39,769 nt of DNA from a virus (taxonomy: Duplodnaviria > Heunggongvirae > Uroviricota > Caudoviricetes): positions 1 through 39,769 of IMG/VR virus record IMGVR_UViG_2541047701_000005; one strand, given 5' to 3'. Positions 2,802 to 32,523 of the stretch are shown here, piece by piece. Within the stretch, counting starts at the first letter, position 1. The number at the start of each line of letters is the position of its first letter. The notes beneath the pieces were generated by a model. It had not been told where the DNA came from, made no database searches, and saw only the letters and a list, made by a program, of their open reading frames with translations. The position numbers were made by a program, and so were the translations under genes.

Positions 2802-3526
2802 TATGCAACATTACTCCCATGAATCAGGTGTTGTAGTGCTTTAACACCTTCCTCATTGTAGCGGAACGCTTCCACCTGTTTGCTGGAATGCGCAGATTTA
2901 TCCAGGAAGAACTTCCCGTACTGCTCAGTTTTGAGGTTGTTTGCGTTAGCAATGCGACCAATCTTGTTGGCCGTTACTCCAAGCTGCTCTGCAACCTCCC
3001 CTGCTGAGTAGTAATGCTCTTCTATTGCCGGAAGAGGTATTGCATTAAAACCAACGAGCGGGTTGATTATACTTGCTGCCGCTGTCTGCTTTGCCTCCGG
3101 CGCAAGATTTGGCATCAGATCGAACAGATTGGTAACAGCTTCAACCGTCATTTTCAATGTTCGCGCTTGACGATACTCAACAAGTCCACTCGCTGATTTA
3201 CCGCTTTTAATGTGCGCTTCCTGCATACTTTCAAGTTTGTCTACAAGTGTTCGGCGAACTGCTTTAGATTCGCGAGCAGCAACACGAAGCGCCTGCTTGA
3301 TAGTCATGGAGATAACATCAATGTCAGCCCCGTTTTTCCGACCTACACTTTTTGTGTAGGTCTCGCCTTCCAATTCATCCTCAATTTTCTCGATGAATTT
3401 GTTGTTACGTACTGATGGCTCTCCACATAACTTGCGAGCTTCATTAACCATCATCAGAAGACTTTGGCTGTCAATGGTTTTATCCGTGACAACGGATCCG
3501 ATGTTTGCTACATTCTTAAAAGTCAT
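2801..3526 (-). CDS. ant: Antirepressor Ant (KilAC/AntB-type C-terminal domain), 241 aa
   Basis: Start chosen at internal ATG 3526 (MTFKNVANIG...) with AAGGAA RBS. C-terminal region YSAGEVAEQLGVTANKIGRIANANNL...FRYNEEGV is typical of phage antirepressor C-terminal domains. Confidence 0.6.
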   Translation of the reverse strand: MTFKNVANIGSVVTDKTIDSQSLLMMVNEARKLCGEPSVRNNKFIEKIEDELEGETYTKSVGRKNGADIDVISMTIKQALRVAARESKAVRRTLVDKLESMQEAHIKSGKSASGLVEYRQARTLKMTVEAVTNLFDLMPNLAPEAKQTAAASIINPLVGFNAIPLPAIEEHYYSAGEVAEQLGVTANKIGRIANANNLKTEQYGKFFLDKSAHSSKQVEAFRYNEEGVKALQHLIHGSNVA

Positions 3527-3594
3527 TAGGCATTCCTTATGTGGTAGTAAGGGTGTGACATAGGCCGCCAGCAGCACACTGGCGGTTTTCTTTT
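3521..3594 (+). ncRNA. Candidate sar-like antisense RNA covering the ant RBS and start codon
   Basis: Plus-strand promoter-like GTGACA (3486-3491), 17-nt spacer, TGcTACATT extended -10 (3506-3514). Plus-strand intrinsic terminator CCGCCAG-CAGCACA-CTGGCGG (3565-3585) followed by TTTTCTTTT. Predicted ~70-75 nt transcript antisense to the ant translation initiation region, analogous to P22 sar. Confidence 0.35.
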
Positions 3595-3613
3595 GCGCCG
3601 TCCTGTGCACCAA

Positions 3614-4240
3614 TCAATGAATCCATTCCTCGCCGCGAAGTTTTGCCAGCATTGGCTGAGCGTTCTTTACGACAAAATTGTTGGTATCAAGATTCTTCAT
3701 TTCACGAAGAAGTGATTTCTTGGTTTCTTCTGACATGTAGCGAGTCTCATATGCAATATCGTAAATCCTTCCTGAAAGCTCAGAACCAATTTGCTTCATT
3801 CCTGGGTAGATGTGTTTGCACATTTGTTGACTCTTCTCCATCCACAATTGTAAGTAGCAGAGATTAACCAGTTCTTCGTCAGTAAACTGTTTTGCAATCG
3901 GTGAGCATTCTGCCTGCCGATCCAAAATATCCAGCACCCAGCGGCGGAACTCTTTGGCTACCGGAGTGCGAGCAAACATCGCGATTAGGTGGGCACCGCG
4001 TAGTGAGAAAACTCGCACTTTTTTGCGATAATTTCCTGAGGTACTCACTTCGAGTACCTGAGTCATTCCGGCGCTAAACTCATCGCTATACTTGTTATAA
4101 ATCATTGTTACTGCACGACTATTTGCGTATTTAAGTGCAGATGCAATATTAGATGATGTAAACCAAACACCATGCATATCACGGGTGGGCACCAACTCAA
4201 CTCCGTGGAAGTTGTAATCTGATTTTGCTACAATATTCAT
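3614..4240 (-). CDS. Bro-N domain protein (antirepressor N-terminal-type), 208 aa
   Basis: Start at internal ATG 4240 (MNIVAKSDYNFHG...) with AGGAAA RBS. Motifs HGVWFTSSNIASALKY...FRRWVLDIL are typical of Bro-N/AntA domains. Same frame as the downstream Ant ORF, separated by one TGA and 87 nt. Confidence 0.6.
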   Translation of the reverse strand: MNIVAKSDYNFHGVELVPTRDMHGVWFTSSNIASALKYANSRAVTMIYNKYSDEFSAGMTQVLEVSTSGNYRKKVRVFSLRGAHLIAMFARTPVAKEFRRWVLDILDRQAECSPIAKQFTDEELVNLCYLQLWMEKSQQMCKHIYPGMKQIGSELSGRIYDIAYETRYMSEETKKSLLREMKNLDTNNFVVKNAQPMLAKLRGEEWIH

Positions 4241-4313
4241 GTTAGTTTCCTTGCATACGGTTACTGACATAGAGGCCCGGTTTGTGTTCGCGCACTGCCG
4301 GGCTTCACTATTT

Positions 4314-4487
4314 TTATTGGATGACAACATCGCCCTTTGCCTCAAGTTTCATCAATAACTCCATTCGATAAGCTATCTCTGCCTGAATTGACCTATGGCA
4401 TCTTTTTGCTGATTCGCGGATATGTGAATCAACCTTTTCTGTAAAACGAACCTGACGCGGCTTGATGGAAGATATCTTTTCAGTCAT
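4314..4487 (-). CDS. arc: Arc-like ribbon-helix-helix repressor (57 aa), first gene of antirepressor operon
   Basis: Not in ORF track (<60 aa). ATG at 4487 with AGGAG RBS 7 nt upstream. Translation MTEKISSIKPRQVRFTEKVDSHIRESAKRCHRSIQAEIAYRMELLMKLEAKGDVVIQ has a beta-strand then two helices like Arc/MetJ family proteins. Confidence 0.55.
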   Translation of the reverse strand: MTEKISSIKPRQVRFTEKVDSHIRESAKRCHRSIQAEIAYRMELLMKLEAKGDVVIQ

Positions 4488-4586
4488 TATGCACTCCTGT
4501 TTTTAAAAAACTCATAATCTCACTTTTTGTAGTTTGATTATTCACTCACACTCACTATGAGTCAATGAATTTTTTATGGTGAACTA
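4488..4586. promoter_or_regulatory. Divergent promoter/operator region (Pant-like leftward; promoter of CI-like paralog rightward)
   Basis: 99-bp AT-rich intergenic region between divergent genes. Contains repeated CTCACT/ACTCA motifs and the inverted repeat ACTCA-cta-TGAGT. Confidence 0.35.
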
Positions 4587-5228
4587 ATGAATTTTGACGA
4601 TCAATTCCCATCAAGAGTATCTCTGGCAAGACAGTCCAGGGGTATGACGCAGGCGCAGTTGTCGAAATTAGCTGGTGTTGTTCAACGTCAAATAGCTGCA
4701 TACGAGGGTGGTGAGGCTAAACCACGGCTTCGGGTATTGCAGGCATTAGCCAACGCATTAGGTACTACGGCTGAGTGGTTAGCTCTAGGTGAAGGTCAGG
4801 GTCCGGGAACAAAAAACGTCATGCCTGACGTTCTGGTAAAGCAAATACCAATCCTCAAACTAGATGAAGTTATGCATTACCTAAACACAGGTGAACATTC
4901 ATCGTCTAGATTTCATCCAGCAATATACAATGTTGGTGACTCTGCATTTGCATTGACTATTGAAGGTGAAGCTATGACTACAAGTTCAGGTATTAGTTTT
5001 CCCAGAGGATCGGTTGTCACGTTCAGCCCTCTAGTAAAAGCTAAAAGCAAAGATTATGTAATAGCATCATTGGATAAAGAGCAAATATTGAGCTTCAAAC
5101 AGGTTTACATTGGTGAAATAGAGACAAACCTAGTATCCCTAAACCCAATGTATCCTAATATTCTTGTTAGAAATGAAGATGTTAGTATTTTGGCAACCGC
5201 AGTTTACCTTGAAATCCCGTTGCTTTGA
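4587..5228 (+). CDS. CI-like repressor paralog: HTH (XRE-type) N-terminal domain plus lambda-CI-like C-terminal (S24-type) domain lacking the catalytic Ser
   Basis: 213 aa. N-terminus RGMTQAQLSKLAGVVQRQIAAYEGG is an HTH. C-terminal DSAFALTIEGEAMTTSSGISFPRG...SFKQV...LNPMYPNIL aligns by eye with lambda [28 protein letters not shown]...FTFKKL...LNPQYPMIP; the Ser149 position is Ala and there is no Ala-Gly cleavage site in the linker. Confidence 0.6.
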   Translation: MNFDDQFPSRVSLARQSRGMTQAQLSKLAGVVQRQIAAYEGGEAKPRLRVLQALANALGTTAEWLALGEGQGPGTKNVMPDVLVKQIPILKLDEVMHYLNTGEHSSSRFHPAIYNVGDSAFALTIEGEAMTTSSGISFPRGSVVTFSPLVKAKSKDYVIASLDKEQILSFKQVYIGEIETNLVSLNPMYPNILVRNEDVSILATAVYLEIPLL

Positions 5229-5288
5229 TATCCTTTAGGAAGCAACACATTATCATCTGGTATCCTGCACAAAACTAAGGAGGTTGGT

Positions 5289-5678
5289 GTGAGGCAATTT
5301 CTTGCTGCTATGTTCTTATTCATATCTTTTGGGGCTACAGCAGAGTGCTGGGTAGTTGGAGATATGCGCGGAATAAGCTATTCAGAACGAAATAATTTCC
5401 AACCAGAAGAAGATGGTTTTAGTGGAACATTCATCATTAAGACAAGCGGTGAAGATGCCAGCATCACATATTCTGGGGCAGATGCGGGCGGCATGGTTTA
5501 CAAAGCATTGTCTAAAAACTCCATCATAGGAATCGGCGCAAATGGCGAAACTCAACGCGTTATCGACTCATGGGTAATACATCCTACTGGAACAGTTTTA
5601 ATGTCAAAAACCATTTCCGGTTATGGAAATATGGATTCAACCAAAGCTTTTGTTGGAAAAGTAAAAAGAAAATGTTAA
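5289..5678 (+). CDS. Secreted/periplasmic protein of unknown function (129 aa, N-terminal signal peptide)
   Basis: GTG start with AAGGAGG RBS. N-terminal MRQFLAAMFLFISFGATA is a signal peptide. Co-oriented with and 60 nt downstream of the CI-like paralog. Confidence 0.5.
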   Translation: MRQFLAAMFLFISFGATAECWVVGDMRGISYSERNNFQPEEDGFSGTFIIKTSGEDASITYSGADAGGMVYKALSKNSIIGIGANGETQRVIDSWVIHPTGTVLMSKTISGYGNMDSTKAFVGKVKRKC

Positions 5679-27627: not shown

Positions 27628-27918
27628 TCATTGCCTTACCTCCATAAGCGCCCTATTAATAAACGCCGTCATTGGATTTGCACATCCCCACCCCGTACCA
27701 TCTGGATTTCTTTTAATTGGCTCCTTCTTCACTTTGCGTTTTGCATAAATAACCGTCTTCCACTTACGCTCAACAACACTCAAATGCCCTTGTTTCACCA
27801 TATGCCTTGCTGCTTGAGCGATTCTGTTATTTGGTATTCCGGTGATCAGTGCTAATTCATGTGGGGAGAATTGTTCATGAGTTTTCAGATATTCCAGGAT
27901 GATTTCTTTTCCAGTCAC
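27628..27918 (-). CDS. ren: Ren-like protein
   Basis: 96 aa, N-terminus MTGKEIILEYLKTHEQF matches lambda Ren (MTGKEAIIHYLGTH...), same length and same position downstream of the replication genes. Confidence 0.7.
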   Translation of the reverse strand: MTGKEIILEYLKTHEQFSPHELALITGIPNNRIAQAARHMVKQGHLSVVERKWKTVIYAKRKVKKEPIKRNPDGTGWGCANPMTAFINRALMEVRQ

Positions 27919-28808
27919 GATCTGCTCCTGTAACTATCCCATGTAAACGCAAGAGTGCACCCGCCGCCATCATTCATTCTGTCAATAACACGCTCACCAA
28001 TGAATGCCGAAAGTTCATCTTTGCTCTGATTACTAATCAGGATTGTTGGCTTCATGTATTCATATCTGGTGTTGATAATTTCGAACATGATTAGCTTTTC
28101 AGCATCACTGCCGAACTGCACGCCAACCTCATCGATTATTAACAAGTCAGGATGCGTAAATTGCCTAATGACTTCTTCTTCAGTTCTGGTTGCGGCCTTA
28201 GACCATGTTGATTTGTACTCTCTGGCAATTTTCAACGCAGTGGTAAATATCACAGAGCTTTGATGCTCGATAATGGCGTTCCTAGCGATAGCCAGTGCAA
28301 GATGGTTCTTTCCAGTTCCAGGCTTACCACACATGACCAGTCCGCCACCTTTTTGAAGGCGTTCAGGCCACTTACTGGCATATGCCTGGCATACCTTAAG
28401 AACTCGCTTTGCATCATCGTTAACAGGCTCATAATTCTGAAGAGTGCAATTTTTGAACCTCTCTGGAATATTGAGAGAATTCAACAAGTATTCAATTTTT
28501 GATTGTCTTGCTCTTTGTTCTGCCTGCTCACGTTCAATCTCTTTCTTACGAATTTTCTCCTCAAGGCACTGTGGGCACTCAGATTTACTTGAAGTAATTC
28601 TTTTTCCTGAGATGGTCAGATATTTCTCATAGGAAGTATATTTACCGTGTTTCTCGCACTCTTCCACTGTGCTGGTAACTGACATTCCATCTGATGCTGA
28701 TCCAATTTTGCTAAACTCAAGTTTCTGTTTCAGATCAGAAATGTCATTGATTTTTGAGTCTACAAGTTGCCTTTGCAGTGCCAGATTGTAACCATTTGTC
28801 GTATTCAT
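27915..28808 (-). CDS. Replication protein, DnaC-like helicase loader
   Basis: Start at internal ATG 28808 (GGAG RBS, overlaps the O stop). Walker A GKPGTGKNHLALA and Walker B LLIIDEVG; N-terminal Cys-rich zinc-finger-like region (CPQC). Confidence 0.8.
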   Translation of the reverse strand: MNTTNGYNLALQRQLVDSKINDISDLKQKLEFSKIGSASDGMSVTSTVEECEKHGKYTSYEKYLTISGKRITSSKSECPQCLEEKIRKKEIEREQAEQRARQSKIEYLLNSLNIPERFKNCTLQNYEPVNDDAKRVLKVCQAYASKWPERLQKGGGLVMCGKPGTGKNHLALAIARNAIIEHQSSVIFTTALKIAREYKSTWSKAATRTEEEVIRQFTHPDLLIIDEVGVQFGSDAEKLIMFEIINTRYEYMKPTILISNQSKDELSAFIGERVIDRMNDGGGCTLAFTWDSYRSRS

Positions 28809-28810
28809 AT

Positions 28811-29656
28811 TCACTCCTGCGCCCATGAAGGCATTTCAGTTTGTCCGTAATCTTTAGCGGCAAAGTTTTCCTGCATAGCTCGATGCTGCGGCCTAGGTTG
28901 AGGTTTCCCCTTTGGAGTCTTGGGCTCAAAAATCCCCTGCCAACCACTGGCGATGCTCTGGTTTATAATTTCTTCAGGTGTATATCCCTTCTCCAGACTT
29001 CTGCTTAGAACGTTGATAGCCTGAGTGACACTTTGCTTAGACTTGATCGACTTACCTATCTCCTTGCGATAGGTAACCCACGACAACCATGTTTCTGCTG
29101 ATAACCAATCAGGCAACTCTGTTTCTAGCGGGTCGAACTTCTGAGAAACTTTTTTGGGGGATATAGGGGGTTTATTAATATTTTCTTTTGTCTTTAAAGA
29201 ATGTCTTTTGTGTGTCTCTAACTTCGAGACATTGAGTGTCTCTAATTTGGAGACATTTTTTGTCTCTAACTTCGAGACAAAGTTGCTAACTTGGAGACAC
29301 TTGCTGAATTGCCACGCAGATACCTCCCTGTTTACACCGATTTTATTTCCATCCATAAACAAGCAATTCATTGAAATCAGTTCTTTTTTAGCCTTGTTAA
29401 CATTCTGCCTTGACAGTCCTGTTAACTGAGCAATTTGCTCATCGGCTATTCGATCTGTTTTCTTATTGAATCCATATGTTTTCCGGACGTAGGCCAGCAT
29501 AACTTTCAACTGGCGAGCGGTTAAATCGGCACTTGCGATAGCTTCCAGCAGCTCGTTAGCGAATCTGGTGTAACCATCATCGATATCAGCCACTCTTAGC
29601 TCCTGTTCGGCAAAGTTACCTCTGCCGAAGTTGAGTATTTTTGCTGTATTTGCCAT
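28811..29656 (-). CDS. O: Replication initiator O-like protein (lambda-O-type N-terminal domain)
   Basis: N-terminus MANTAKILNFGRGNFAEQELRVADIDDGY is near-identical to lambda O; the internal repeated peptide SKLET corresponds to the DNA iterons. Confidence 0.85.
   Translation of the reverse strand: MANTAKILNFGRGNFAEQELRVADIDDGYTRFANELLEAIASADLTARQLKVMLAYVRKTYGFNKKTDRIADEQIAQLTGLSRQNVNKAKKELISMNCLFMDGNKIGVNREVSAWQFSKCLQVSNFVSKLETKNVSKLETLNVSKLETHKRHSLKTKENINKPPISPKKVSQKFDPLETELPDWLSAETWLSWVTYRKEIGKSIKSKQSVTQAINVLSRSLEKGYTPEEIINQSIASGWQGIFEPKTPKGKPQPRPQHRAMQENFAAKDYGQTEMPSWAQE
29161..29299. repeat. Replication origin: four ~19-bp iterons (TGTCTCTAAcTTcGAGACA type) with ~24-bp periodicity plus adjacent AT-rich region, inside the O gene
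   Basis: Iterons at about 29213-29231, 29237-29255, 29261-29279 and 29283-29299; each is internally palindromic (TGTCTC...GAGACA); AT-rich stretch 29161-29212. Confidence 0.8.
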
Positions 29657-29688: not shown

Positions 29689-29988
29689 TCAGAATTCCAT
29701 CTGGATTTGTTCAGAACGCTCGGTCTTGCACACCGGGCGTTTTTTATTGGTGAGTCCATCAAGCGCATACTTAAAAGCCCTGCTAATCGGACTGATATCT
29801 GATGCCATTCCGAAAGCACACAGGACCGAAGCAATAAATCTCCAGTCCGTTCTGCTTATCTTCGATTCATGACAGCCAATCATCTTTGCCAGACCGCGCT
29901 GTGTAAGCGTTGACAGGTTGATGAGTAAATCTGTTTCTGCGCGATCAACGTCGCGCTGTGATAGTTTGCTGTAACTTGTTTGTTCCAT
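29689..29988 (-). CDS. cII: CII-like transcriptional activator
   Basis: 99 aa; C-terminus LTNKKRPVCKTERSEQIQMEF is near-identical to lambda CII (ILTNKKRPAATERSEQIQMEF); N-terminal half diverged. Confidence 0.8.
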   Translation of the reverse strand: MEQTSYSKLSQRDVDRAETDLLINLSTLTQRGLAKMIGCHESKISRTDWRFIASVLCAFGMASDISPISRAFKYALDGLTNKKRPVCKTERSEQIQMEF

Positions 29989-30094: not shown

Positions 30095-30304
<210 letters not shown>

Positions 30305-30321
30305 TTAGTGCATGCAATCAT

Positions 30322-30385
30322 TATCACCGCTAGAGGTAAAATAGTCAACACGCACGGTGTTAGATATTTATCCCTTGCGGTGATA
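30322..30385. promoter_or_regulatory. Right operator OR1-OR2-OR3 with PR/PRM (lambda-type)
   Basis: 17-bp sites TATCACCGCTAGAGGTA (30322-30338, cro-proximal), CAACACGCACGGTGTTA (30346-30362) and TATCCCTTGCGGTGATA (30369-30385, cI-proximal). The latter two match lambda OR2/OR3 as I recall them. Confidence 0.85.
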
Positions 30386-30392
30386 GATTTAA

Positions 30393-31109
<717 letters not shown>

Positions 31110-31116
31110 CACGTAA

Positions 31117-31554
31117 ATGATTAAAGAACGTATTTCTTATATCATTCCGATTGCGATGGATGAAGGCAACCCCGTAACTCCAGTTCTTATCTATGAAATG
31201 GATAAAGACTCCCATGAAGTGGATCTGTCATTTGGCGCTTTTTTTATCGGCCTTAAGGCTACAAAAAAATATTCCATAGGCATTGAGGTTTTCAATGCTC
31301 AAGAAATACCGATACCAATTGACACAAAACTGTACTCCAACCATAAGTTTTTTACGGTAGCAGAAGCCAACGATGGAGAAACCATCGTATCAACTTCTAT
31401 GAGAATTAACTTCCCAAGGGTGAAAATTATCAAGCCTGGGATATTCGAAGTTAGAGCATCACTGGTTAATCCTGAGAAAGGCGAAGTAATTGATGTAAAA
31501 AGTTCGTTTTTTGACGTGAAGATAACAGGATCAGTTCGCGATGAGTTTAGATAA
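31117..31554 (+). CDS. Hypothetical protein (145 aa) in the rexA position downstream of cI
   Basis: ORF starts 8 nt after the cI stop; AT-rich codon usage; no resemblance to RexA that I can recognise. Confidence 0.5.
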   Translation: MIKERISYIIPIAMDEGNPVTPVLIYEMDKDSHEVDLSFGAFFIGLKATKKYSIGIEVFNAQEIPIPIDTKLYSNHKFFTVAEANDGETIVSTSMRINFPRVKIIKPGIFEVRASLVNPEKGEVIDVKSSFFDVKITGSVRDEFR

Positions 31555-31660
31555 CAAGGTTGCTCAGCTTCGTCCAAATCAAAACATATCTCGCCCAATT
31601 GGACACTATTCCACTGATGATGCATACTCTCGGCATGGTGGAGGAAACGGCGGAGGTAAC

Positions 31661-31912
31661 ATGCTTGAGGCTAGAGTTGCAAAGCTAGAGTCTGATGTTG
31701 AATACATCAAGCGCGATCTCGCTGAGGTAAAATCAGATATAAAATCTGTTGATTCTCGTCTGTCAGGTATTGAGACAAGTATTAGCTCAGCAAAAACCAC
31801 CATTAAGGCATCTGCGGTCGTTGTCAGTTTCGTGTTCGCATTTTGCGCCTACATTTTTGGAAGTTATGTTTCCAAAATCCTTGATGCCTTAAACGGACTC
31901 GTTCTTAAGTAA
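31661..31912 (+). CDS. Small coiled-coil membrane protein (83 aa from the GGAGG-preceded ATG; 123 aa if started at 31541) in the rexB position, XhlA-like architecture
   Basis: MLEARVAKLESDVEYIKRDLAEVKSDIKSVDSRLSGIETSI is an amphipathic coiled coil, followed by a single C-terminal TM helix AVVVSFVFAFCAYIFGSYV; the RBS GGAGGT sits 4 nt upstream of ATG 31661. Confidence 0.45.
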   Translation: MLEARVAKLESDVEYIKRDLAEVKSDIKSVDSRLSGIETSISSAKTTIKASAVVVSFVFAFCAYIFGSYVSKILDALNGLVLK

Positions 31913-31918
31913 CACACA

Positions 31919-31945
31919 ACCCGGCCTCAGTGCCGGGTTTTCTTT
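31919..31945 (+). terminator. Intrinsic terminator ending the cI-cassette transcript
   Basis: ACCCGGC-CTCAGT-GCCGGGT hairpin followed by TTTCTTTG, directly after the stop codon at 31912. Confidence 0.65.
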
Positions 31946-32096: not shown

Positions 32097-32160
32097 AACC
32101 ATCTGCGGTGATAAATTATCTCTGGCGGTGTTGACACAAATACCACTAGCGGTGATACTA
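32097..32160 (+). promoter_or_regulatory. Left operator OL3-OL2-OL1 with PL (-35 TTGACA, -10 GATACT), lambda-type
   Basis: AACCATCTGCGGTGATA, TATCTCTGGCGGTGTTG and TACCACTAGCGGTGATA at about 32097-32157; PL hexamers overlap OL2/OL1; transcription is rightward toward N. Coordinates approximate. Confidence 0.8.
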
Positions 32161-32204
32161 AACACATCAGCAGGACGCTGGAAGCCAAACGGAACAGATT
32201 GGCA

Positions 32205-32239
32205 TGCTCTTTAACTTCGATGGGGCGCTGACAAAGCGC
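32205..32239 (+). promoter_or_regulatory. nutL: boxA (TGCTCTTTAA) and boxB (GCGCTGACAAAGCGC, P22-type)
   Basis: boxA-like sequence followed 10 nt later by a 5-bp stem / GACAA loop hairpin matching the P22 boxB as I recall it. Coordinates approximate. Confidence 0.6.
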
Positions 32240-32403: not shown

Positions 32404-32523
32404 ATGCTGGAAATTATCACCAACCCAATTCTCGGTGGGGCAATCATCACTTTCGCAATCGGAATCGGATTCACTATCTGGTCTGAAGTAGATGACTGGA
32501 TGTGGGAGCGCAAAAACAAATAA
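32404..32523 (+). CDS. Candidate small ORF (39 aa, single TM helix) in the PL leader between nutL and N
   Basis: ATG preceded by GGAGAAAAG; translation MLEIITNPILGGAIITFAIGIGFTIWSEVDDWMWERKNK; below the ORF-track size cutoff. Confidence 0.3.
   Translation: MLEIITNPILGGAIITFAIGIGFTIWSEVDDWMWERKNK

Follow-up and report, generated by a model that had tools for sequence, protein, structure and literature searches.

A candidate two-component exclusion cassette in place of rexAB behind a lambda-type cI gene

Introduction

What does a lambdoid prophage carry between its repressor gene and its leftward promoter if it does not carry rexA and rexB? In textbooks, the stretch from cI to PL belongs to RexAB, which was the first abortive-infection (Abi) system to be described and is still poorly understood. 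The question is raised by a tailed-phage genome of 39,769 nucleotides (nt) (IMG/VR record IMGVR_UViG_2541047701_000005, positions 1 to 39,769; hereafter "the window"), in which two small open reading frames (ORFs), here called ORF1 and ORF2, occupy this interval on the + strand. A preliminary description of the window, made from the sequence alone, had singled them out as an unrecognised cassette that might exclude other phages from the lysogen. Following up this suggestion, we found that both ORFs are genes under purifying selection, that related pairs recur behind repressor genes of several unrelated kinds, and that the membrane protein of the pair combines with different soluble partners. 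Our best account, which we put forward tentatively, is a two-component phage-exclusion module that resembles RexAB by analogy and not by homology.

The cassette replaces rexA and rexB in the repressor operon

Read on its + strand, the window presents the leftward arm of an immunity region of the lambdoid type. Its cassette operon opens with a lambda-type cI repressor gene from the ORF list (30396-31109, +; 237 amino acids, aa), which shares 91.9% nucleotide identity with lambda across 30300-31105 in blastn comparisons and whose near-identical protein (≥90%) in the related locus L064 matches HTH_3 and Peptidase_S24. ORF1 (31117-31554, +; 145 aa) begins 7 nt after the cI stop codon, with an in-frame TAA directly 5' of its start, and overlaps ORF2 (31541-31912, +; 123 aa) by 14 nt; an AGGA lies 10-13 nt 5' of the ORF2 start. 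Five bases past the ORF2 stop, a terminator scan located an intrinsic terminator (31918-31945, +) of the form AACCCGGC-CTCAGT-GCCGGGTT-TTCTTT, with an 8-bp stem containing six GC pairs and a T-run. It takes the position of t_imm in lambda and forms the 3' end of the cI-ORF1-ORF2 unit; the same scan returned no terminator between cI and 31918. The downstream edge of the slot is set by OL3, OL2 and OL1 together with PL (32097-32163, +), as recognised from the sequence itself, a promoter scan and the lambda annotation: the three operators span 32097-32157, and the -35 and -10 elements of PL lie at 32131 and 32154, respectively. Since the promoter scan found no promoter-like site between cI and ORF1, nor any convincing promoter of the cassette's own, the pair is presumably transcribed from PRM. 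A candidate internal promoter within ORF2 (31600-31628) matched only 9 of 12 consensus positions, which is background frequency, and we do not claim it.

Homology to lambda stops at 31105, in the last codons of cI, and restarts at 31918, where the terminator stem begins; in lambda, this stem comes after the rexB stop codon. By these blastn breakpoints, an exchanged segment of 812 bp (31106-31917, +) replaces the 1,404 bp of lambda that hold rexA and rexB. The preliminary description was thus right in placing two ORFs directly behind a lambda-type cI and ahead of a terminator and OL/PL, in the exact slot of rex within the repressor operon. It had further called the segment more AT-rich than its flanks. 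With 40.3% GC against a window mean of 47.0% (standard deviation 3.9), the cassette does fall into the 5th percentile of 812-bp windows, but the dip is mainly due to ORF1 (37.9%), which lies clearly below its surroundings, whereas ORF2 (42.5%) resembles the neighbouring cI gene (43.8%) and the terminator-PL stretch (41.8%).

Both ORFs are real genes under purifying selection. The ratio of nonsynonymous to synonymous substitutions (dN/dS) was ~0.1 in both frames against near-identical copies and 0.1-0.3 in the majority of comparisons with distant relatives; for ORF2 it was about 0.05-0.28 in most comparisons and 0.44 in one. A minus-strand ORF of 108 aa (31299-31625) was discarded, as the selection signal, the PHROG matches and the confident fold all belong to the plus-strand frames.

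A soluble beta-sandwich and a membrane-anchored coiled coil

ORF1 matches phrog_5893, a family with no assigned function, over its full length (E=3.4e-64). No Pfam, NCBIfam or PADLOC family scored above threshold, no helix-turn-helix (HTH) or ribbon-helix-helix (RHH) family matched, and a sequence search of the PDB returned no match; a hit to DotH/IcmK (E=0.054) was treated as noise. The protein lacks a hydrophobic segment (maximum 0.81 on the Kyte-Doolittle scale with a 19-residue window), and its AlphaFold2 (AF2) model, built from an alignment of 77 sequences, is an all-beta sandwich of eight strands with high confidence (predicted local distance difference test, 91.5; predicted template-modelling score, 0.86), in keeping with the soluble protein of 145 aa that had been proposed. 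When this model was compared with the PDB by Foldseek, the matches were generic immunoglobulin (Ig)-like sandwiches with template-modelling scores of ~0.5, namely a glycoside hydrolase family 2 (GH2) domain, a carbohydrate-binding module (CBM), RhoGDI and MD-2/NPC2; we do not derive a lipid-binding role from these matches. The best viral structural matches (score 0.65) were uncharacterised phage proteins of ~140 aa. Across 77 relatives, the invariant positions of ORF1 are I6, P22, F39, G40, Y52, L116 and F132, that is, hydrophobic residues, glycine and proline. As these make up a core and not a catalytic set, we read ORF1, on the strength of its model, as a probable non-enzymatic Ig-like binding module. 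Its family is small: a search of 1.84 billion cluster representatives recovered only ~120 families, nearly all of them stand-alone proteins of 135-155 aa, and those with a name are without exception "hypothetical protein" from Enterobacterales.

ORF2 matches phrog_6136, likewise without assigned function, over its full length (E=2.9e-46). In its AF2 model residues 1-40 are disordered and residues 41-121 form one long helix, and together with the alignments this divides the protein into four parts. The N-terminal tail (residues 1-32; 31541-31636, +) is hypervariable across subfamilies and co-inherited with the upstream partner gene. It is followed by a near-invariant glycine-rich linker, GGGNGGGN (residues 33-40; 31637-31660, +), which is the mosaic joint of the family, and by a coiled coil (residues 41-91; 31661-31813, +) that opens with the family signature MLEARVAKLESDVEYIKRD and has hydrophobic residues at 14 of 15 a/d positions in a single register over residues 41-92. 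A single transmembrane (TM) helix (residues 92-110; 31814-31870, +; Kyte-Doolittle 19-residue maximum 2.1) precedes a C-tail of 13 residues that ends at 31909. An amphipathic coiled coil with one C-terminal TM helix is what the preliminary description had seen. The same plan recurs among 69 relatives. Their N-tails are hypervariable and measure 25-38 residues, the linker GGGNGGG is nearly invariant, and the signature M(L)EARVA(K/R)LESDVE(H/Y)IK leads into a coiled coil that differs in length between proteins and ends in a TM helix at the C-terminus. The window protein has each of these features, with a variable N-tail, a G-rich linker and a coiled coil of the M(L)EARVA(K/R)LESDV type, and near-invariant residues are R45, V46, A47, L49, E50, D52, Y55, I56, D59 and D66. 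Neither ORF1 nor ORF2 shows a signal peptide or secretion feature; for ORF2, this and the charged stretch of 90 residues ahead of the TM helix suggest a tail-anchored protein with a predicted cytoplasmic N-terminus.

The strong coiled coil and the single TM helix give ORF2 the look of a membrane-active protein, with an architecture like that of XhlA (PF10779) from the Bacillus subtilis prophage PBSX, likewise a small protein (~90-120 aa) in which an N-terminal coiled coil precedes a single TM helix at the C-terminus. The likeness to XhlA drawn in the preliminary description, however, extends to this general architecture and no further: over residues 42-95 ORF2 scored 21.6 bits against PF10779 (E=2.4e-4), below the gathering cutoff of 34.7 bits, and a longer relative (L033) scored 17.9 bits. 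Some ORF2 copies are named "hemolysin XhlA" in NCBI genome annotation, which in view of the sub-threshold score is no evidence of function; we take the "hemolysin" label to be an annotation carry-over tied to PF10779. XhlA itself is said to be needed for holin-dependent lysis, a result attributed to Krogh et al. 1998. One could therefore see in ORF2 an XhlA-type holin partner, or in the pair a modulator of the lysis-lysogeny switch comparable to RexA or 434 Hex. Genes co-transcribed with a repressor can indeed affect induction (PMC3564112), and some copies of the pair lie in clusters of late (tail) genes. Yet the XhlA score may reflect generic coiled-coil similarity, neither the G-linker signature nor the variable N-tail is a feature of XhlA, and the hosts of the pair are Gram-negative. 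Besides, the pair was never seen beside holin or endolysin genes in the loci examined, where its neighbours are repressors, OL/PL and tail genes; in the window, it sits in the lysogenic operon, on the strand opposite to the late genes; and the many unrelated repressors found upstream of it argue against a regulatory partner of one particular repressor. Nor did YomS or XepA, whose gene adjoins xhlA in PBSX, appear among the top 50 Foldseek PDB matches of ORF1, which, along with the different genomic context, leaves the analogy to the XepA-XhlA lysis-type pair of PBSX unsupported. All in all, we regard an accessory role in lysis or induction as very unlikely.

The pair recurs behind unrelated repressor genes

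At ≥95% identity, the cassette is present in 16 of 5,426 complete E. coli genomes, always on the chromosome. In enteropathogenic E. coli (EPEC) E2348/69 it follows the same cI, and it occurs in other pathogenic isolates, too. Among phages, it corresponds to gp45/gp44 of Salmonella phage epsilon34 and is also found in g341c (gp40/39) and NM-3. The epsilon34 pair, whose ORF1 counterpart shares 73% protein identity with that of the window, lies directly 3' of a different repressor gene (gp46) and 5' of OL/PL. More distant relatives in Enterobacter prophages (22-47% identity for ORF1) follow either a 241-aa HTH+S24 repressor or Rac-type repressors of 128/143 aa. The occurrence of the pair behind unrelated repressors in other phages supports its horizontal acquisition, as had been surmised. 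When all ORFs of the collected loci were scanned with family hidden Markov models, an ORF1-like gene stood directly 5' of an ORF2-like gene in 26 of the first 58 loci, including some from Kluyvera, Phaseolibacter, Photorhabdus, Xenorhabdus, Morganella and Entomohabitans. A profile search of genome contigs added distant relatives only, and tblastn of ORF2 against phages gave few records.

The slot itself has several tenants. In lambda-immunity phages, at least seven cassettes occur between cI and OL/PL: rexAB, hicAB and five others. In HK542 (HK244-like), the ORF1 profile recognises a protein of 144 aa (E=4.7e-17), and the next gene encodes a coiled-coil protein of 206 aa whose C-terminus carries a TM helix. 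In HK544, the ORF2 profile recognises gp40 (183 aa; E=1.8e-13), with a partner of a third type, gp41 (93 aa), ahead of it. These relatives share the position behind a lambda-type cI and are distant; the second protein of HK542 lacks the G-linker signature, and gp40 of HK544 has a longer N-terminal domain. Counting these, the family of the pair accounts for three of the seven cassette types found behind lambda-type cI. All of the relatives in these classic phages (epsilon34, HK542, HK544) are annotated only as hypothetical; the cassette is no one-off, and here the preliminary description overstated the case. Other uncharacterised cassettes in the same slot, found in mEp332 (L062, 937-1974), PhiR5_2 (L063, 946-1707) and the loci L060/L061, are unrelated to the pair; they encode, e.g. 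a 345-aa protein with a central TM helix that is annotated as "T2SS GspM containing" and a 253-aa protein.

To describe the genomic position more generally, we collected the gene directly upstream of each pair (same strand, usually within ≤100 nt), removed redundancy among the products and searched the remaining 66 proteins for Pfam domains. HTH_3 was found in 37 of them, Peptidase_S24 in 24, HTH_31 in 15, Phage_CI_repr in 14, Arc in five and Mnt in one, and at least 42 of the 66 are DNA binders of the repressor type, drawn from several unrelated groups. The position of the pair is thus non-random and tied to repressor genes. On five IMG/VR contigs (L094, L099, L110, L136 and L137; around positions 3200-4300), the pair is located directly 3' of an Arc-like RHH repressor gene, in one case also Mnt-like. 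This Arc/Mnt-type setting is the immI-type region, in which P22 keeps sieA.

Most of the other copies reside in tail/baseplate gene clusters of Photorhabdus, Xenorhabdus and Morganella, where an intrinsic terminator follows right after ORF2 (e.g. L024, 5311-5330; L028, 5438-5455), the classic signature of an inserted accessory unit. The promoter scan returned only weak matches (9/12) for these copies. In L024, L027, L028, L030-L033, L048 and L054 (at ~3800-4500), small ORFs of 119-158 aa with signal-peptide-like N-termini lie just 5' of the pair and are possible further cargo at the same insertion site. A moron is an extra gene unit inserted into a conserved phage backbone, and the pair has several of its hallmarks: cI and OL/PL are common to lambda-immunity phages, with rexAB, hicAB or other cassettes between them; an intrinsic terminator of its own is present in the window, L024 and L028; and the base composition deviates from that of the window.

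Could the pair instead be an addiction-like module, with ORF2 as a membrane toxin and ORF1 as its antitoxin, that stabilises the prophage or tunes its induction? In many type II toxin-antitoxin (TA) pairs, too, a small upstream gene overlaps the next one, here by 14 nt; hicAB fills the same slot in mEp234 and HK106, and the architecture of ORF2 resembles that of membrane-active peptides. ORF1, however, has neither the DNA-binding domain and autoregulated promoter of a type II antitoxin nor any protease-labile antitoxin feature, and it is modelled as a stable-looking beta-sandwich, while no convincing promoter of the cassette's own was detected. Addiction modules abound on plasmids, whereas our search of 72,556 plasmids yielded no match for ORF1 and one marginal match for ORF2; instead of the broad occurrence on plasmids and chromosomes that marks type II TA systems, the contexts of the pair are overwhelmingly prophage. 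Three unrelated "antitoxin" families (see below) would also be unusual for a single toxin. This reading seems quite unlikely to us, if a little less so than a role in lysis.

Soluble partners are exchanged at the glycine linker

ORF2-like proteins are not wedded to a single type of partner, and loci without an ORF1-like gene proved to carry other ones. Besides type A, whose profile the window ORF1 matches as a small soluble partner encoded directly 5' of ORF2 and overlapping it, we distinguish type B, proteins of 105-128 aa with two CxxC pairs (Zn-ribbon-like) that match phrog_4293 with E-values down to 1e-25, and type C, a protein of ~90 aa as in HK544. Type B was found in Enterobacter phage ENT1, Xenorhabdus, Photorhabdus, Yersinia, Serratia, Vibrio and others. 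The 144 sources comprised 82 type-A pairs, 25 type-B pairs and several divergent type-A or type-C pairs; the remainder were chance coiled-coil matches in unrelated chromosomes.

At the DNA level, the joints of this mosaic fall on the linker, with megablast/blastn matches that either break at window position 31657 or begin at 31634. In epsilon34 and two E. coli genomes, the match to the window ends at ~31657, in Enterobacter phage ENT1 it starts no earlier than ~31634, and a variant (P0023) is 99% identical in the C-terminal part and carries an unrelated N-tail. The homology block shared with epsilon34 (L001, 3060-4041; window 30701-31657) extends from the C-terminal domain of cI through ORF1 to the linker, which implies that recombination took place within the repressor gene and at the G-linker. 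Accordingly, the N-tail and linker of ORF2 are conserved in epsilon34, while its coiled-coil/TM part is a different variant. Of note, gp46 of epsilon34 and the C-terminal (S24) half of the window cI share 74.6% nucleotide identity. Together, these sequence comparisons show that the partner and the N-tail are exchanged as one unit against the unit of linker, coiled coil and TM helix, with at least three unrelated partner families.

A constant coiled-coil/TM part combined with a swapped partner and N-tail indirectly supports the idea of a sensor joined to a membrane effector. It could also fit a block of DNA entry that leaves the cell alive, in which ORF2 would serve only to anchor ORF1 or the other partners on the cytoplasmic side of the inner membrane, and the complex would bind the ejection or tape-measure proteins of an incoming phage or the host channel that these use. 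The arguments from position and expression that favour a Rex-like module apply here equally. Membrane tethering of a non-enzymatic binding domain would suit such a function, interchangeable partners could match the entry proteins of different phages, and some pairs lie behind Arc/Mnt-like repressors (five Arc and one Mnt of the 66), in the type of region that holds sieA in P22. On the other side, the pair shows no similarity to known superinfection exclusion (Sie) proteins in Pfam or PADLOC, its strongest conservation falls on the coiled coil and linker and not on a surface that would contact diverse phages, and the near-invariant signature of 25 residues would be superfluous in a pure anchor; a periplasmic domain is absent as well. 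We therefore consider an entry block unlikely, albeit worth more credit than the other alternatives named here.

Copies of the pair between gap and pgk

In three metagenome-assembled genomes of Hyphomicrobiales/Alphaproteobacteria (L037, L045 and L051; at ~4600-5400), a Zn-ribbon type-B partner gene and an ORF2-like gene are located between gap, encoding glyceraldehyde-3-phosphate dehydrogenase (GAPDH), and pgk; the ORF2-like gene carries the G-linker, MLEQRVARLEADVSEIK and a TM helix. The module is thus not strictly phage-borne. Such chromosomal copies speak for a role of the pair in host physiology or virulence, be it through a response to membrane stress, the envelope or a haemolysin-like activity that benefits the lysogen independently of phages. 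The presence of the cassette in EPEC E2348/69 and other pathogenic isolates, and the "hemolysin" label of some copies, might be seen in the same light. Against this, signal peptides and secretion features are absent from both proteins, and a conflict between phages agrees better with the strong tie to prophage repressor genes and with how rarely the cassette occurs (16 of 5,426 complete E. coli genomes). Of the alternatives spelled out here, we give this one the least credence, and whatever likelihood the named explanations leave over belongs to something else.

A putative Rex-like exclusion module

By their position in the repressor transcription unit, ORF1 and ORF2 should be made in the lysogen. 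Characterised genes that are co-transcribed with lambdoid repressors exclude or abort other phages; this holds for RexAB, for the tyrosine kinase of 933W and for Hex of 434 (PMC3564112), as well as for BstA. The region from cI to N is known as a hotspot of mosaicism (PMC8585504). On this analogy, the likeliest function of the cassette, by a judgement that falls short of an even chance, is that of a two-component exclusion module. In such a scenario, the horizontally mobile insert would be transcribed with cI from PRM in the lysogen, up to the t_imm-like terminator. ORF2 would reside in the inner membrane as a tail-anchored protein, its coiled coil and disordered N-tail facing the cytoplasm, and ORF1, produced in coupled amounts by virtue of the 14-nt overlap, would dock on this N-tail as the specificity (sensor) or adaptor subunit. 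Upon infection by a heterologous phage, ORF1 might bind a phage component and thereby change how the ORF2 coiled coil and TM helix oligomerise, so that the membrane would be permeabilised or depolarised and the infection aborted. While the placement of the genes and the exchange of partners are observed, the topology, the contact between the two proteins, the trigger and the membrane-damaging output are what we infer.

RexAB excludes T4 rII-type phages by depolarising the membrane. The parallels to it concern the slot, which in both cases runs from the end of cI to the t_imm terminator within the repressor transcription unit, the combination of one soluble and one membrane protein, and the exchange as an accessory between otherwise near-identical immunity regions. 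We reject homology to Rex: hhalign gave a probability of 0.1% for the ORF1 family profile against lambda RexA and of 0.4% for the ORF2 profile against RexB, and PADLOC returned no Rex match. The preliminary description, which had seen no resemblance to either protein, proved correct in this regard, and the profile and Foldseek searches it had called for revealed no confident homology of ORF1 or ORF2 to any characterised family. RexB, of 144 aa, is a polytopic membrane protein, whereas ORF2 has one C-terminal TM helix and a coiled coil. The two genes of the cassette overlap and start 7 nt after cI, compared to a gap of 112 nt in lambda. RexA measures 279 aa and is described as a DNA-binding protein (PMC11077077), in contrast to the beta-sandwich of 145 aa predicted for ORF1. 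Other repressor-linked, co-transcribed genes whose products abort or exclude heterologous phages are those for BstA, the 933W tyrosine kinase and 434 Hex (PMC8585504, PMC3564112); these, however, are single unrelated proteins (a DNA-binding Abi protein, a kinase and the product of a small overlapping ORF, respectively) without a membrane coiled coil. By its logic, the cassette also resembles two-gene prophage defences of mycobacteriophages such as gp30/gp31 of Butters, reportedly a lysogen-expressed defence in which a soluble protein works with a membrane protein; it is not known to be related to them in sequence, the membrane partner there is polytopic, and the hosts and phage lineages are different.

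Several observations weigh against an exclusion module. PADLOC-DB v2.0.0 contained no significant match to any defence-system component, with only weak coiled-coil matches for ORF2 (E≥0.0046) and none for ORF1; those of ORF2 to CorA-like proteins and LmuB were dismissed as noise or generic coiled-coil similarity. Literature searches by accession, by PHROG identifier and for XhlA together with defence found no report on these proteins. A single-TM protein of the size of ORF2 could be a mere anchor and not a pore former, the co-variation of N-tail and partner could be plain physical linkage, and the core-genome setting between gap and pgk hints at a cellular origin or role. Finally, 434 Hex also modulates induction, so that genes co-transcribed from PRM are not all purely defensive (PMC3564112).

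A wider proposal, which we hold just as tentatively as the exclusion function itself, is that the cassette represents a widespread and so far unrecognised modular family of prophage immune systems. One tail-anchored coiled-coil effector (GGGNGGG-MLEARVAKLESDV) would be combined with at least three unrelated cytoplasmic sensors (beta-sandwich, Zn-ribbon and the ~90-aa protein), each plugged in via the hypervariable N-tail. This family, and not Rex, would then be a common tenant of the repressor-operon slot in prophages of Enterobacterales, and it may descend from a cellular module of the kind located between gap and pgk.

Further features of the window

On the - strand, divergent from the cassette operon, the window carries cro (30095-30295), cII (29689-29988), an O-like replication gene (28811-29656) and a gene for a DnaC-like loader (27915-28826). 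Downstream of PL, nutL boxB (32225-32239) is followed by a gene that matches an N-like antiterminator PHROG family; both the boxB and the arginine-rich N-terminus of the N-like protein look P22-type to us. Between nutL boxB and the N gene, at the start of the PL transcript, lies an ORF of 39 aa with a single TM helix (MLEIITNPILGGAIITFAIGIGFTIWSEVDDWMWERKNK; 32404-32523, +) and a good ribosome-binding site, which matches phrog_7482 (function not assigned; E=1e-22). The - strand of positions 1-27000 encodes proteins of 732, 482, 417, 297, 609 and 724 aa, which, judged by size alone, we take for a P22-like virion module. The window may therefore combine a P22-like structural genome, an N-like antiterminator, nutL boxB and Erf/single-stranded DNA-binding (SSB) recombination genes with lambda immunity.

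Conclusion

In summary, an unrelated and much smaller pair of genes repeatedly occupies the slot that RexAB holds in lambda, behind repressors of the lambda, P22, Rac and Arc/Mnt types. Compact (0.8 kb) and amenable to genetics, the cassette is a candidate in which to ask how a membrane effector is switched by its soluble sensor. Candidate defence systems are already numerous; if active, this one would add a new family to the defence repertoire of prophages and would explain long-standing "hypothetical" genes in epsilon34, HK542/HK244, HK544 and EPEC E2348/69. Even if the pair is not defensive, its strict linkage to repressor genes still points to a function associated with lysogeny.

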